Shown here piece by piece: positions 2,263 through 6,721 of a stretch of 10,232 bases of DNA (position 1 is its first letter; each line of letters begins with the position of its first letter). The stretch covers positions 1 to 10,232 of the forward strand of contig CAZJUB010000093.1 of NCBI GenBank assembly GCA_964549075.1, given 5' to 3'. The stretch comes from an uncultured archaeon (GTDB lineage: Archaea > Asgardarchaeota > Heimdallarchaeia > Heimdallarchaeales > Heimdallarchaeaceae). Made by a program: the position numbers and the translations under genes. The notes below the pieces were generated by a model that was given only the letters and a program-made list of their open reading frames with translations, ran no database searches and was not told where the DNA came from.

Positions 2263-2274
2263 GATTAGTCTCAC

Positions 2275-2305
2275 CAAGCACTCTACTATTACACATGAGT
2301 GTTTG
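2275..2305 (+). other. Stem-loop just downstream of the small ORF (possible 3' end or processing structure)
   Basis: CAAGCACTC(2275-2283) pairs with GAGTGTTTG(2297-2305): 9 bp with one G-U pair and a 13-nt loop. Confidence 0.35.
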
Positions 2306-2452
2306 CTTGAATCAAAATTCGATAAAAGTAAGATCACACATTTCATCAAAGGATTTTTTTCTCAATTTTACTAATAAAACAAACATTTAATTATTTCACA
2401 AAACATTTTTAAATTTCTAAAAGAAATTAATTCTTTGATACAATCATCTATC

Positions 2453-2464
2453 TATGTGCACATA
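2453..2464. promoter_or_regulatory. Perfect 12-bp palindrome, candidate operator of the dehydratase/activase operon
   Basis: TATGTGCACATA directly precedes ATG 2465 and ends 18 nt before ATG 2483. Upstream lie AAAGAA-N5-TTCTTT (2420-2436) and a TATA-like TTTTTAAA (2406-2413). Confidence 0.35.
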
Positions 2465-2482
2465 ATGAAATCATCCAATAAT

Positions 2483-3505
2483 ATGGTGAAAATCGGGATC
2501 CCCAGAGCGTTATTATTCTATAAATTCTCTGCTTTATGGATTACTTTCTTTGAAGAATTAGGCGCTGAAATAGTTATCTCTCCCATAACAACAAAGAAAA
2601 TCAAAGATGACGCAGTAAAAAATGCACCTGATGAAGATTGTTACTCTACAAAATTATATTTCGGTCATGTCTTAGCTCTTAAGGATAAAGTAGATTATCT
2701 CTTTGTACCTCGCTTTGGAGGACGTAAGAAAAAGTATGTTGGTTGTCCAAAATTTATCGGTTTAGCAGAAGTTCTAAAATCAATGATTCCTGACTTACCA
2801 CCCATCTTGATGCCACACTATAATCGTGGAATGGATAAAAACACAAGAATAGGGCTTGTTATGAGAGCATACAGGTTGGGACGAGTTGTAACTATTAATC
2901 CTTTTAAAAGAATAAAAGCAATTTGGAGAGCTTTTAAAGCTCTGAGGATTCATAATCGAGAATTGATAATTGACGAAGAAACTCTTTCTAGATGGGAAAA
3001 AAGTGAAATTGTTTTAAACGATTTTCCAATTTATACCCTAAATCAACGAGTTCTTAAAGTAGCTCTGGTGGGACATTCATATGTGTTAAATGATCCTTAT
3101 TCTTCTTTAAACATACGTTCATTGATGCAAGAATATGGTGTTGACATAATAACTTCTGAACAAATGCCACGAAAGTTTATTGAGAATCAGATGGCAAAAC
3201 TTGAGTATGATATCTACTTTGATTTTGAGAGAGAGATATTAGGTACAATAATGCATTTTCTAGAAACTAAAACAATTGACGGAATTATCCATTTGATGAT
3301 TTTCAGTTGCGGACCTGATTCAATTGCGGGAGAAATTGCTTCTAGATTTTCAAAAAGAGATACAGTTATCCCGCTTCTTCAACTTGTCTTTGATGAGTTG
3401 ACAGGAGAAGCAGGTATGAGAACTAGAATTGAAGCTTTCGTTGATATGTTAAGACGAAGTATTGAAGAGCGAGTCGTACTTCTTCCAGCAAAAGTTCATA
3501 TTTAG
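2483..3505 (+). CDS. Acyl-CoA dehydratase activase-related Fe-S protein (DUF2229 / 2-hydroxyacyl-CoA dehydratase-like subunit 1)
   Basis: Motifs KIGIPRALL, FFEELG, EDCYSTKLYFGHV, LFVPR, GCPKFIGL, LVGHSYVLND, FSCGPDS and FDELTGEAGMRTRIEAFVDML, with three motif cysteines. ATG 2483 (MVKIGIPR) fits the family N-terminus better than the TTG 2435 in the ORF track; ATG 2465 is also possible. Confidence 0.88.
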   Translation: MVKIGIPRALLFYKFSALWITFFEELGAEIVISPITTKKIKDDAVKNAPDEDCYSTKLYFGHVLALKDKVDYLFVPRFGGRKKKYVGCPKFIGLAEVLKSMIPDLPPILMPHYNRGMDKNTRIGLVMRAYRLGRVVTINPFKRIKAIWRAFKALRIHNRELIIDEETLSRWEKSEIVLNDFPIYTLNQRVLKVALVGHSYVLNDPYSSLNIRSLMQEYGVDIITSEQMPRKFIENQMAKLEYDIYFDFEREILGTIMHFLETKTIDGIIHLMIFSCGPDSIAGEIASRFSKRDTVIPLLQLVFDELTGEAGMRTRIEAFVDMLRRSIEERVVLLPAKVHI

Positions 3506-3509
3506 GAGG
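3504..3509 (+). promoter_or_regulatory. Shine-Dalgarno motif for the 3519 gene
   Basis: AGGAGG overlaps the upstream TAG and ends 9 nt before ATG 3519. Confidence 0.7.
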
Positions 3510-3518
3510 AATGAATAA

Positions 3519-4610
3519 ATGCCATTATCTTTCCCTTATGTTGGAACTTTTACCTATGTATTTGAATCAATAGCTAGAGGTATGAGAAGAGATGATGTAA
3601 TCGTCCCTCATGAACCAACGGCTAAAACAAAACAACGTGGATCTAGTGCGTCTTCTGAGTTCGTTTGCACTCCATTTAAGATGCTTCTTGGTTCTATCAT
3701 TGAAGTTATTGAAAGAGGAGCTTATGAAATCGTTGCTACAGTATTTGTTGATTATTGTAGGTTAGGTTATTACTCGCCTTTATACAAGATTATCTTAGAA
3801 GATATGGGATATGAATTTGACCTTATCAATTTAGATTGGTTTGATAAAGTGGATTTTTTTAGAAGTTTTAAAAAACTTGCATGCAATGTTAATGCTATTC
3901 AAGCATTTCAGGCTTTTAGAGTTGGGTGGATAAAGAATAGATATATCGATCTTATAGATAAACTTCTTTACAGTTATGGAGCAGTCGAAATAACGAAGGG
4001 TACCTCTTACAAAACTGCACACAAGCTGTATAGACAAGTAGTAGAAACAGATGGGATGAAAAACATCAGACAATTACCTTTCATTATAAATAAGACCTTT
4101 GAAGATGAAGTAGAAATTGACGAAGAGTTAAAACCGTTGAAGGTGGGAATTGTCGGTGAATTATATGCTGTTGTAGAACCTGCTATTAACTTAGATATTA
4201 TGCGGAGATTAAATGATCTTGGTGTTGTTTCGTACACACCCATTACATTCACACGATGGATAGACTTAGGACAACGAATGAATCCGTTCAAAAAATGGCA
4301 CTATAAAGCTTGTATCAGAAGTGCTAAACCTTATGTAAGATATCCACTAGGTGGAAAAACCAGAGAATCTTTAGGTAGTGTTGTAGAATTTAAAAAAGAA
4401 GGTTGGGATGGTGTCATACATTTGTATCCTTTTACTTGTATGCCTGAAATTATCTCTAGAAGTATACTTCCTCAAGTGAGTAAGGAACACAATATGCCTG
4501 TTCTATCTCTAGTTCTAGACGAACATACTGGAGAAGCAGGTATTCAAACTCGTTTAGAGGCTTTTATAGATCTTTTAGAACGAAAAAGAACAGATGGTGG
4601 TGAAAAATAA
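3519..4610 (+). CDS. 2-hydroxyacyl-CoA dehydratase/reductase-like Fe-S subunit 2 (COG3581-like, 'CoA protein activase')
   Basis: Motifs EFVCTPFKMLLG, CRLGYY, VGIVGELYAVVEPAINLDI, GVIHLYPFTCMPE and LDEHTGEAGIQTRLEAFIDLL. The C-terminus is paralogous to that of the upstream gene. Confidence 0.88.
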   Translation: MPLSFPYVGTFTYVFESIARGMRRDDVIVPHEPTAKTKQRGSSASSEFVCTPFKMLLGSIIEVIERGAYEIVATVFVDYCRLGYYSPLYKIILEDMGYEFDLINLDWFDKVDFFRSFKKLACNVNAIQAFQAFRVGWIKNRYIDLIDKLLYSYGAVEITKGTSYKTAHKLYRQVVETDGMKNIRQLPFIINKTFEDEVEIDEELKPLKVGIVGELYAVVEPAINLDIMRRLNDLGVVSYTPITFTRWIDLGQRMNPFKKWHYKACIRSAKPYVRYPLGGKTRESLGSVVEFKKEGWDGVIHLYPFTCMPEIISRSILPQVSKEHNMPVLSLVLDEHTGEAGIQTRLEAFIDLLERKRTDGGEK

Positions 4611-4620
4611 ATGATAGAGG

Positions 4621-5601
4621 ATGAAAATGACATTAAGTAAAGGAAGATTCTATTTAGGAGTTGATGTAGGTTCTATTAGTACTAATTTAGCAGTGATAAA
4701 TGATTCAAAAGAACTTATCGAATCTGTTTATATACGAACTGAAGGGAGACCAGTAAAATCTGTCCAAAGAGGAATGAGGATTTTAAGAGACAAAATTGGT
4801 CAAGACTTATTAATATCTGGTGCTGGTGCTACAGGTAGTGCAAGAAAATTAACTGGAGTCATAATAGGAGCAGATGTAGTAAAGAATGAAATTACAGCAC
4901 ACGCATTAGCTGCACTACATTATAATCCTCATGTTCAGACTGTGATTGAAATTGGTGGTCAAGATAGTAAAATCATTATTATTAGAAATGGAATTGTGAT
5001 TGATTTTGCTATGAACACAGTTTGTGCTGCAGGAACAGGATCCTTTCTTGATATGCAAGCAAATCGATTAGAAATCCCTATTGAAGATTTTGGAGACTTA
5101 GCTCTTCAATCTGATACTGCAGTTTCAATTGCTGGAAGATGTACTGTTTTTGCTGAGAGTGATATGATCCACAAACAACAGCTAGGTCACCCCACTAAAG
5201 ATATTATCAAAGGTTTATGTGAAGCATTAGCTCGAAATTATCTAAGTAATGTAGGAAAAGGGAAGGATATTAAATCCCCAATCATGTTTCAAGGAGGTGT
5301 CGCAGCAAATGTAGGTATGAGAAAAGCTTTTAAAAAGTATCTAGAGCAAGAGATTATCGTACCTGAGAATTTTGCAGTAATGGGAGCTATTGGTTCAGCA
5401 ATACTTGCTCAAGAAGACTTTCTAAAAAATCCAAAGCCTTCAAACTTCCAGAGTTGGGATATATCAAAGATGAGTTTTAAAACATCTGGTTTTGAATGTG
5501 ATGGGTGTTCGAATATATGTGAAATTGTGGAGATATATAGAGAAGAACAACTGATTGCTCGATGGGGAAGTAGATGTAGAAAGTGGGATGTAATAAGCTA
5601 G
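4621..5601 (+). CDS. Acyl-CoA dehydratase activase ([4Fe-4S] ASKHA ATPase, BadF/BadG/BcrA/BcrD/HgdC family) with a C-terminal Cys-rich extension
   Basis: Motifs LGVDVGSISTN, ATGSAR, EITAHA, IEIGGQDSK, MNTVCAAGTGSFL, RCTVFAESD, FQGGVAAN and GAIGSA, plus the tail FECDGCSNICEI...GSRCRKW. The start may be ATG 4627, which has GAGG 6 nt upstream. Confidence 0.95.
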   Translation: MKMTLSKGRFYLGVDVGSISTNLAVINDSKELIESVYIRTEGRPVKSVQRGMRILRDKIGQDLLISGAGATGSARKLTGVIIGADVVKNEITAHALAALHYNPHVQTVIEIGGQDSKIIIIRNGIVIDFAMNTVCAAGTGSFLDMQANRLEIPIEDFGDLALQSDTAVSIAGRCTVFAESDMIHKQQLGHPTKDIIKGLCEALARNYLSNVGKGKDIKSPIMFQGGVAANVGMRKAFKKYLEQEIIVPENFAVMGAIGSAILAQEDFLKNPKPSNFQSWDISKMSFKTSGFECDGCSNICEIVEIYREEQLIARWGSRCRKWDVIS

Positions 5602-5620
5602 AGTTGCTTATGACGCAACT
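5602..5620 (+). terminator. Possible 3' hairpin after the activase gene
   Basis: AGTTGC-TTATGAC-GCAACT immediately follows the stop codon. A T7 tract lies further on at 5665-5671. Confidence 0.3.
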
Positions 5621-5668
5621 AATTAGAAAAAGATCATGAGTAGTTTAACTCTCTAAGAGAATTATTTT

Positions 5669-5676
5669 TTTATATA
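5669..5676 (+). promoter_or_regulatory. Putative TATA box of the aSelBL-like gene (leaderless)
   Basis: TTTATATA lies 23-30 nt upstream of ATG 5699, with no SD motif. Confidence 0.6.
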
Positions 5677-5698
5677 GTACTTTTTTCTTGCATTTAGA

Positions 5699-6721
5699 AT
5701 GGTTACAACAATATGTTCCTATCTACTAGGAAGCGATCCAGAAATCAGACAAAAACTAGCTAAACAATTAGGTAAAAAAGCAACAAGTTCTGATATAACT
5801 CTATATTCATATGATAAAGAATATGCTCTTGAAATAGTTGATCCTATACGATATCCAGACAAACCATTGGTTCTTTTTCAAACAATTTTAATGGCAGACG
5901 TACCTATAATTGTTATTACTTCTACTGGAATTGATATTCATACTGGTGAATTTGGCATTCTTTTAGATGCTTTAAAATATTCTAATGGTATTGTTGTGGT
6001 CGCTCATGATGGAGAATATGTTAATTTTGAAGAAATATCAGAGAATTTTAAAAAACTCTTCAAAGATATGGTGATTAAAGATTATCCTATTCTGAATATT
6101 GATCTTTCTAAAGGAGAAGATCTAACTCTTCTAAAACAAACTATGATCAAACAAAATGAACAAAAAATTGAACGTAAATGGAGTGAATCTAACCAATCTA
6201 GAGTTGATATTGATCATGTTTTTCCAGTAACAGGAGTAGGTACTGTCATCTTAGGTAGAGTAAGAGCTGGAACTCTTTCTAAAGGTGAAATGTTGCACGT
6301 GTTTCCATCAAAAAGAAATTGTGTCCTCCGATCCATACAGATTAACGATATTGACTATAGTAGCGCTACAGAAGGGCAAAGAGTAGGCTTAGCTTTACGA
6401 GGTTTATTACCAAAAGATGTAGAACGTGGATTCCTTCTATCCAATCAAGTTAATTGGACAATAACAACCGAAATAGATGTTAAGCTAGAAGTTGCTCCTT
6501 ATTCTAAACTCCCAGAAGAAGGAAAGATGAGGCATCTTATAGTAGGACTTCAAGCAGTTCCAGCGACAATTATTTCTTGTGCTCCCGTAAAGGAAGGACA
6601 ATCTGATTCGTATTTGATTAAACTAAAGTTAGATAGAAAAATTGTTGTGCATACTAAAGAACCTGCTTTTCTTATAGATTTGAATGGAAAACCAAAAACA
6701 ATAGGATATTGTAATCTTTAA
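5699..6721 (+). CDS. Archaeal SelB-like (aSelBL) EF-Tu family protein with a degenerate G domain
   Basis: The N-terminal LGKKATSSDITLY...DPIRYPDK matches my recollection of aSelBL proteins. EF-Tu domain II is clear (IDHVFPVTGVGTVILGRVRAGTL, SIQIND, GQRVGLALRG, DVERG) and a domain III-like region follows. There is no GxxxxGK[ST], DxxG or NKxD motif. Confidence 0.85.
   Translation: MVTTICSYLLGSDPEIRQKLAKQLGKKATSSDITLYSYDKEYALEIVDPIRYPDKPLVLFQTILMADVPIIVITSTGIDIHTGEFGILLDALKYSNGIVVVAHDGEYVNFEEISENFKKLFKDMVIKDYPILNIDLSKGEDLTLLKQTMIKQNEQKIERKWSESNQSRVDIDHVFPVTGVGTVILGRVRAGTLSKGEMLHVFPSKRNCVLRSIQINDIDYSSATEGQRVGLALRGLLPKDVERGFLLSNQVNWTITTEIDVKLEVAPYSKLPEEGKMRHLIVGLQAVPATIISCAPVKEGQSDSYLIKLKLDRKIVVHTKEPAFLIDLNGKPKTIGYCNL

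Follow-up and report, generated by a model that had tools for sequence, protein, structure and literature searches.

A split three-gene enzyme of the DUF2229 radical branch in a Heimdallarchaeaceae genome: a candidate for ester-to-ether lipid chemistry

[quoted passage not shown] In the sections of the literature devoted to these enzymes, single-gene PlsA is described as a succession of Act1, Act2, Red1, and Red2 (PMC12838417), and Ger as having the architecture BBDHDDH, of which the "BBD" portion is conserved in all alkyl-ether producers (PMC13159169). In the current report, we describe a three-gene operon that encodes the same parts—that is, an HgdC-like activation module, a DUF2229-containing Red1, and a diverged Red2—within a 10,232-b stretch of DNA (hereafter, the window), which is the whole of contig CAZJUB010000093.1 (C93) in a metagenome-assembled genome (MAG) of an uncultured archaeon of the family Heimdallarchaeaceae (GCA_964549075.1). 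The window operon resembles PlsA/PlsR and Ger in having three cysteines per reductase half, and the oxygen-sensitive chemistry of the benzoyl-CoA reductase/2-hydroxyacyl-CoA dehydratase (BCR/HAD) family, as set out in sections of the same two papers, would be expected of all of them (PMC13159169; PMC12838417). Judged by its sequence, the operon encodes an intact enzyme, divided over three subunits, that belongs to the DUF2229 (PlsA/PlsR/Ger) branch within the BCR/HAD radical-enzyme family, with the reduction of a fatty-acyl ester lipid towards an ether as a tentative function.

The three genes are co-directional on the forward strand, with all reading frames open: subunit A (Red1-like) occupies positions 2483–3505, subunit B (Red2-like, paralogous to A but diverged) positions 3519–4610, and the activase, an ASKHA ATPase of the HgdC type with 326 aa, positions 4621–5601. 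They are separated by gaps of 13 nt (3506–3518) and 10 nt (4611–4620); a Shine-Dalgarno-like GGAGG at 3505–3509 overlaps the TAG stop codon of A and stands 9 nt before the ATG of B, and a GAGG is located immediately 5' of the activase ATG at 4621. The tight coupling and Shine-Dalgarno motifs claimed in a preliminary description, which had been prepared from the sequence alone, are thus borne out. Alternative starts for subunit A are available at 2465 and 2435; the start is likely either 2465, as in a 346-aa database entry, or 2483, and the difference is immaterial. Positions 2263–2482 (forward strand) form the presumed promoter region, with the A/T-rich, TATA-like TTTTAAAT at 2406–2413, and the putative terminator at 5602–5686 (forward strand) consists of an inverted repeat (AGTTGC...GCAACT, 5602–5620) and T-runs at 5664–5670 and 5681–5686. 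Because this repeat and the T-runs follow the activase, and because the next gene has an A/T-rich upstream region of its own, the transcription unit appears to comprise these three genes. The 17 sequencing runs that were listed are DNA metagenomes throughout, with no RNA run among them.

The domain content of the three proteins is consistent with this assignment. Subunit A matches the Pfam profile DUF2229 (PF09989) at full length (profile positions 1–216 of 218; E-value 1.1e-41, 143 bits) and HGD-D (PF06050) at 1e-7 (32.3 bits against a cut-off of 28.4). The corresponding matches of subunit B fall slightly under the cut-offs (DUF2229, 6.6e-6; HGD-D, 1.5e-5), and B is further recognized by its identity to A (35.5% over 152 aa, E 2.6e-18) and to the B subunit of a second pair on contig C32 of the same genome. 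The activase matches BcrAD_BadFG (PF01869; 4.8e-47, 161 bits) and the NCBIfam model TIGR00241, "acyl-CoA dehydratase activase" (180 bits against a cut-off of 125).

The cysteine residues are distributed in an equally characteristic manner. Subunit A contains three in total (C53, C88, and C276), which are invariant in 27 of 27 archaeal homologues, and subunit B contains five, of which C50, C80, and C307 are common to the C32 paralogue; we infer that A and B would each bind a three-cysteine [4Fe-4S] cluster. The activase carries C135 and C174, which we take to be equivalent to the cluster ligands of HgdC, together with a C-terminal motif, C293-x2-C296-x3-C300...R318-C319. This CxxCxxxC...RC tail is found in all 129 full-length split activases of two overlapping locus sets, and it lies past the end of HgdC in the Protein Data Bank (PDB) alignment (the match to 1hux covers residues 10–268). 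A site of the form CxxCxxxC...C also follows the second activase domain of a fused homologue encoded on contig C97 of this genome (C595, C598, C602, and C620), whose reductase halves display the same 3+3 cysteine pattern. Through the tail motif and the 3+3 pattern, the split activase is linked with the DUF2229 branch and not with the Hgd, Had, or BCR systems. The earlier depiction of two paralogous three-cysteine subunits and an activase with a cysteine tail therefore agrees with the Pfam, NCBIfam, and cysteine mapping results.

Structural comparisons place subunit A at some distance from every solved member of the superfamily. A sequence search of the PDB returned marginal matches only for A (DCCP, 7yyl_C, E 0.005; HadC, E 0.018) and none for B; the activase matched HgdC (1hux, 1.5e-39), HadI (1e-35), DCCP-R (5.4e-24), and also MbdQ. 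An AlphaFold model of A, built from a 27-sequence alignment (pLDDT 88.4), gave HadC as its best Foldseek match (3o3m_B, E 2.2e-9, TM 0.55), with DCCP at E 6.9e-9; HadC, DCCP, BzdNO, and MbdON together spanned E-values of 2e-9 to 8e-5 at TM values of about 0.5, and A is thus a distant BCR/HAD-fold member that is close to no solved structure. With an HgdC-type activase, an HGD-D-fold partner, and three conserved cysteines per subunit, the operon belongs to the BCR/HAD superfamily. It shares with HadBC/HadI, HgdAB/HgdC, and the class I BCRs (BzdNOPQ and MbdONPQ) the superfamily fold of A (Foldseek E 2e-9 to 1e-7), the activase family, and the principle of ATP-driven electron injection, but differs from them in the marginal similarity of its catalytic subunits, the lack of a CoA-ester gene context, and the additional activase tail and DUF2229 domain; moreover, BCR has two different ATPase subunits, whereas the window has a single activase gene. 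The DCCP/DCCP-R system (PDB 6eno, 7yyl) likewise pairs an activase with an HGD-D-fold partner and supplies the best PDB sequence match of A, although the window enzyme differs from it in having three conserved cysteines per subunit, two paralogous subunits in a presumed heterodimer, and DUF2229.

A census of DUF2229 and activase genes in the assembly identified three loci: the window operon, an A–B pair on C32, and a fused protein on C97. The fused protein (C97:1943–6166, reverse strand; locus L090) is of the PlsA/Ger type and has 1408 aa, with activase domains at residues 22–261 and 309–624, an A-like region at 661–965 (full DUF2229, 1.4e-51), and a B-like region with an HGD-D tail at approximately 1028–1408; it is collinear with the activase, A, and B, and its architecture is that reported for Ger and single-gene PlsA. 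Two activase domains fused N-terminally to DUF2229, the "BBD" arrangement, are thus present in the C97 protein of this genome and not in the window, which has one separate 326-aa activase where PlsA and Ger have two activase domains joined to Red1. The PlsA/PlsR/Ger-like machine of the preliminary description therefore stands insofar as a complete three-polypeptide set, collinear with the C97 protein, is present; it is the C97 protein, not the operon, that is the genome's closest PlsA/Ger relative. The C97 gene sits between a 510-aa open reading frame (ORF) of no assigned family and a gene for a NosD/beta-helix protein. Homologues of the fused type are conserved in records from Heimdall, Gerd, Thor, and Promethearchaeum, among them a 1419-aa protein of P. 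syntrophicum, a cultured Asgard archaeon that has one fused and two split modules. The C32 pair (C32:25261–27370, forward strand; locus L091) shares 57% (A) and 44% (B) identity with the window subunits and lacks an adjoining activase. As no second stand-alone activase was found in the assembly (PF01869 matches occur solely on C93 and C97), the one in the window would probably also serve the C32 pair.

The relationship between split and fused forms was examined with two trees, both rooted on the B-type subunits, whose rows are subsamples that retain every third to sixth bacterial or fused sequence. In a FastTree tree of 147 rows, all 41 fused Red1 sequences formed one clade (support 99) and the 33 rows of archaeal split A another (100); in a quick IQ-TREE PMSF tree of 92 rows, 16 of 16 fused Red1 sequences (99) and 49 of 49 archaeal split A sequences (99) again grouped separately. 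The window A falls outside the fused-form clade and inside the archaea-only split clade in both trees. The fused clade itself, which serves as a proxy for PlsA/Ger, is placed among the split lineages of bacteria, but only weakly (support 87–89). On this evidence, the window enzyme would be a cousin of PlsA/Ger and not a member of the fused-form proxy clade. A recent transfer from Firmicutes, which the preliminary description had allowed for, is unlikely because the archaeal split A sequences, 49 in number, group together in a single clade. One divergent split A of Lokiarchaeum ossiferum (L122) stands apart from the archaeal clade on a very long branch. The split subunits of one "Bathyarchaeia" MAG (L008, L166, L192, and L196) and of one "Thorarchaeota" MAG (L004 and L160) nest among Heimdall sequences; these labels or bins may be wrong, and they were not counted as a wider range. 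A further scan, using a two-gene PlsA-like protein of Sporomusa ovata as the query, returned 14 loci, none of them from C. perfringens, Enterococcus, Lactococcus, Thermotoga, or Desulfatibacillum; the relatives came from Sporomusa, Anaerolineae, and Acidobacteriota only.

Split three-gene modules are also found in anaerobic Bacillota, where they are annotated as "acyl-CoA dehydratase activase-related protein". Most of the 80 activase loci show the same A–B–activase order, with the cysteine pattern and activase tail of the window, while their subunits, approximately 35–41% identical to those of the window, belong to separate clades. In 13 loci of spore-forming Bacillota (L013, L027, L032, L035, L037, L042, L043, L062, L072, L074, L076, L078, and L079), the module directly follows spoVAC-spoVAD-spoVAEB-(spoVAE)-SpoVAF/GerA, a context that the archaea lack; most of these loci then carry lysA, a PALP enzyme, the CCA-adding enzyme, scpA, or scpB. 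These Bacillota modules are the "additional PlsA homologs lacking the activation domain" of a passage in PMC13274423.

The proposed mechanism follows that of the superfamily. The activase is presumed to form a homodimer around a bridging [4Fe-4S] cluster on C135 and C174, with an extra four-cysteine site in its tail; it would hydrolyze ATP and drive a low-potential electron into the A/B heterodimer, where a ketyl radical would be generated on the carbonyl group of the substrate. Our guess for this substrate is a fatty-acyl ester lipid, for example an acyl-glycerol-phosphate that PlsY-like enzymes of this genome might form from DegV-bound, Dak2-phosphorylated fatty acids, and the enzyme would reduce it towards a vinyl or alkyl ether. 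We assign a probability of roughly 0.4 to a fatty-acyl glycerolipid ester as the substrate.

The gene content of the genome offers part of the route that such a substrate would need. A search for glycerol-3-phosphate acyltransferases, which the preliminary description had proposed, was successful with respect to PlsY, with three PlsY-like genes, of the acyl-phosphate:glycerol-phosphate acyltransferase family (C173:780–1487, C9:21358–22098, and C79:18–533; loci L146–L148), one of which adjoins an archaeal class V FBPase, and returned neither PlsC nor PlsX. The 510-aa protein beside PlsY on C173 has no Pfam or PDB match; it was considered as a relative of the 510-aa ORF on C97 and rejected, the two being unrelated. 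DegV, a fatty-acid-binding protein of the DegV/FakB type, is present in at least 15 copies (e.g., C1:88542–89387, C30:9020–9850, and C10:43241–44074) and Dak2 in two short copies, and no match to canonical GGGPS (PcrB, PF01884) was obtained in the genome.

Several members of the archaeal clade are found beside genes of lipid metabolism. In three closely related Heimdall MAGs (L193–L195), PLAT, DegV, and PlsY genes are followed, after a gap of about 490 bp, by A–B–activase; in L156, the sister of the window's orthologue group (support 97), DegV lies 108 bp upstream of A. The order Fe-ADH–SCP2–A–B–activase occurs in three loci of Promethearchaeum, with strain MK-D1 among their sources, and on one metagenome contig, and a divergently oriented AFOR gene stands beside A in five loci. 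A metagenome scan added 29 archaeal-type loci, one with ADH–SCP2–A and three with DegV within 8 kb, none of these adjoining A. The 51 archaeal A genes comprise 29 in A–B–activase order, 11 in A–B pairs without an adjoining activase (at least 900 b follow), and 11 that could not be judged. The 389-aa protein encoded after the activase in L194 has no Pfam or PDB match. Locus L168 (Heimdall MAG 12F4_9) contains two tandem A–B pairs with an activase between them that is split into ORFs of 88 and 145 aa, which may be a broken gene or an assembly error.

The immediate surroundings of the window operon are of a different kind: ABC-2 exporter genes, a 77-aa ORF, an EF-Tu/SelB-like 340-aa protein, an MFS transporter, and an SBP_bac_5 protein. 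The EF-Tu/SelB-like gene (5699–6721, forward strand) matches Pfam EF-Tu domain 2 only (7.5e-9) and the middle of a selB model (3.5e-21), with no match to a G domain; it has its own A/T-rich upstream region and lies outside the operon. At the seven closest orthologous loci, the neighbors are an LVIVD-repeat protein, two unknowns, an HTH protein, small ORFs, and a TPR protein.

A number of these results weigh against a glycerolipid substrate. No lipid genes stand beside the operon in the window, according to Pfam and NCBIfam, or at the seven closest orthologous loci. A DegV, PlsY, SCP2, PLAT, or AFOR neighbor is found in only 12 of the 51 archaeal loci, which represent few independent events, and in none of 81 bacterial-type loci (L199–L228 and L261–L311); some adjacency to DegV would be expected by chance because DegV is so abundant in these genomes. 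The window A shares no more than 26% identity with the Red1 region of the C97 protein, its clade lies apart from all fused forms examined, and the trees contain no characterized PlsA, PlsR, or Ger sequence. PlsC and PlsX are missing among the search results, and for P. syntrophicum, despite its one fused and two split modules, only phytane and biphytanes are given in the relevant part of PMC11316595; the method may have missed ester lipids, as noted in a passage of PMC13400652. The ester-to-ether chemistry of the preliminary description thus gains from the PlsY, DegV, and Dak2 genes and from the contexts of related operons, and loses from the low identity, the position outside the fused clade, and the absence of lipid neighbors; it stays at the tentative level given above. 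Finally, a 2026 paper describes, in the passage concerned, the role of PlsA homologues without the activation domain as unclear (PMC13274423), a statement that also speaks for the alternative of a different substrate.

That alternative, in which the same radical machine would act on a fatty acyl group (whether free or bound to a carrier), an acyl-CoA, another activated carbonyl, or in a fatty aldehyde or alcohol step, is in our estimate as probable as the glycerolipid-ester reading, each falling short of even odds. Different substrates are implied by the several paralogous split modules per genome, two here and three in a Clostridiaceae genome without a fused form, and the genomes of Moorella thermoacetica and Fervidicola ferrireducens that were searched have split modules only. 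Bacterial catalytic subunits are approximately 35% identical to those of the window although the activases are approximately 60% identical, AFOR and Fe-ADH genes adjoin the Promethearchaeum and Heimdall loci, and a class I/II aminotransferase gene lies upstream of the activase-less A–B pairs of C32, L186, and L187. On the other hand, the only characterized DUF2229 enzymes act on glycerolipid esters, according to the relevant sections of two papers (PMC13159169; PMC12838417), and those members of the window's archaeal clade that adjoin DegV-PlsY or SCP2 genes speak for lipids. A 2-hydroxyacyl-CoA dehydratase of amino-acid fermentation (of the HgdABC, HadBCI, or FldBCI type) could be suggested by the resemblance of the activase to HgdC and HadI and by HadC as the best structural match of A, and Asgard archaea have been described as amino-acid fermenters. 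We nevertheless consider this reading improbable: the similarity of A to HadC is marginal in sequence and reaches a TM of only 0.55, the strong Pfam match is to DUF2229 and not to HGD-D, the activase tail is absent from HgdC-length proteins, and neither a CoA-transferase nor a 2-hydroxyacid dehydrogenase gene is present in the window or at the 51 mapped archaeal loci, the earlier statement that no CoA-transferase or fermentation genes flank the operon having been confirmed by Pfam analysis of the window.

A DCCP-like small-molecule reductase, that is, a double-cubane cluster protein with its own reductase, appears very improbable even though DCCP is among the best sequence and fold matches of A and DCCP-R matches the activase. 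The [8Fe-9S] double-cubane site of DCCP requires six cysteines per monomer, more than the three of subunit A or the five of subunit B (three of them conserved), and the window enzyme would be a heterodimer of paralogues carrying DUF2229 instead of a homodimer. The contig could also be a bacterial contaminant, or a recent and functionless horizontal acquisition, given that the assembly is a MAG (3.23 Mb, 217 contigs, 89.7% complete) with an estimated contamination of 3.4%, and that Bacillota activases are approximately 60–64% identical to that of the window. This we regard as barely credible: the GC content of the contig (32.5%) agrees with the genome mean (32.4%, standard deviation 1.2%), its flanking gene families are partly syntenic with the 134-kb Heimdall contig L151, the 49 archaeal A sequences make up a single clade, 16 of the 17 genomes sampled from its family carry DUF2229, and every reading frame is intact with all motif cysteines conserved. 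The closest homologues, at 77–84% identity, reside in Heimdall MAGs (83–55% for A and 84–69% for the activase across Heimdall, Asgard, and Promethearchaeum records). No small-subunit rRNA is present in the assembly; Ribosomal_L15e was detected in the genome, and a search for L21p found no match. The archaeal origin that the preliminary description had presumed is therefore upheld, and a bacterial contig was rejected on the basis of ribosomal markers, synteny, tree, and GC content.

The glycerolipid-ester reading was also considered at the level of the phylum, using 151 genomes that are at least 80% complete, grouped by GTDB family (f1, f2, and so on); family counts exclude the window genome. 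In the window's family, f1, canonical GGGPS was matched in three of 17 genomes (one match strong) and DUF2229 in 16, with PlsY and DegV in all 17; the 14 relatives without a GGGPS match include two single-contig genomes. Family f2 has GGGPS in 2/6 (weak), DUF2229 in 1/6, and both PlsY and DegV in 6/6; the single genomes of f3 and f6 each have DUF2229, PlsY, and DegV without GGGPS, and that of f4 has PlsY and DegV without GGGPS or DUF2229. For f5, the values are 6/7 for GGGPS (weak), 0/7 for DUF2229, and 4/7 for both PlsY and DegV. The window's class, f1–f6, is thus without strong GGGPS matches apart from the single one in f1; with canonical GGGPS unmatched in the window genome and in those 14 relatives, no enzyme for forming the first ether bond is evident in them. 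Outside the class, f13 combines GGGPS (28/29) with DUF2229 (28/29) and PlsY (16/29), and f24 has GGGPS in 1/3, DUF2229 in 3/3, and PlsY in 1/3, with DegV in none of the genomes of either family (0/29 and 0/3); in the other 17 families, GGGPS is mostly present and in most of them strongly matched (e.g., 32/32 in f10 and 14/14 in f16), PlsY occurs only in f8 (1/2), and DUF2229 and DegV are absent. The idea that PlsA/Ger-like enzymes replace GGGPS was rejected, as the two are not complementary: f13 has both, and f5 and f2 are largely without strong GGGPS or DUF2229. Across the survey, 36 genomes have both DUF2229 and PlsY, 15 DUF2229 only, 13 PlsY only, and 87 neither, counts that are descriptive and carry no statistical test because the genomes are related. 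PlsY is present throughout the class, at two to three copies per genome in f1; DegV is found in 30 of 33 sampled genomes of the class (9–15 copies per genome in f1) and in none of the 117 genomes from the rest of the phylum. For Dak2 (DhaL-like kinase), 17 of 19 genomes have two short genes each and the other two have one match, and together with the DegV expansion this suggests that Heimdall archaea possess a system resembling the fatty-acid kinase. A part of PMC13400652 already reports plsY and plsC in Asgard metagenomes, and strain MK-D1 is described in part of PMC11316595 as being without GGGPS and showing phytane and biphytanes. In a literature search on Heimdallarchaeia with PlsY, DegV, fatty acid kinase, or GGGPS, none of the matches listed named Heimdallarchaeia.

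The enzyme kind is already known, and Ger homologues in Asgard archaea have already been published; the section concerned names Lokiarchaeota (including P. syntrophicum) and Heimdallarchaeota, and matches there had to cover 30% of the query or more (PMC13159169). No single split protein would have passed such a filter if Ger is about 1400 aa long, like the fused forms. The present analysis adds a fused paralogue from the genome that carries the operon, a split clade confined to archaea, and the single, probably shared activase, as well as the DegV, PlsY, and SCP2 contexts and a Heimdall-wide expansion of PlsY and DegV with missing canonical GGGPS, an expansion that may already be in print. A far-reaching possibility, which we regard as a long shot, is that Heimdall-class Asgard archaea make some of their membrane lipids without prenyl transfer, by forming an ester first and then reducing it. 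Fatty (or isoprenoid) acids bound to DegV would be phosphorylated by the small Dak2 kinases, PlsY-like enzymes would pass the acyl group to glycerol phosphate, and split and/or fused PlsA/Ger-like enzymes would reduce the sn-1 ester to an ether. If true, the prokaryotes most closely related to eukaryotes would harbor, in this route, a living intermediate across the lipid divide, and whether Asgard lipids are isoprenoid ethers only or also fatty-acid-based or mixed bears on the origin of the bacterial-type membranes of eukaryotes. The window operon, the fused C97 paralogue, the activase-less C32 pair, and the DegV-PlsY-linked Heimdall copies are clonable candidates, and assigning the split branch would settle a very widespread orphan enzyme family, whichever way the result falls.

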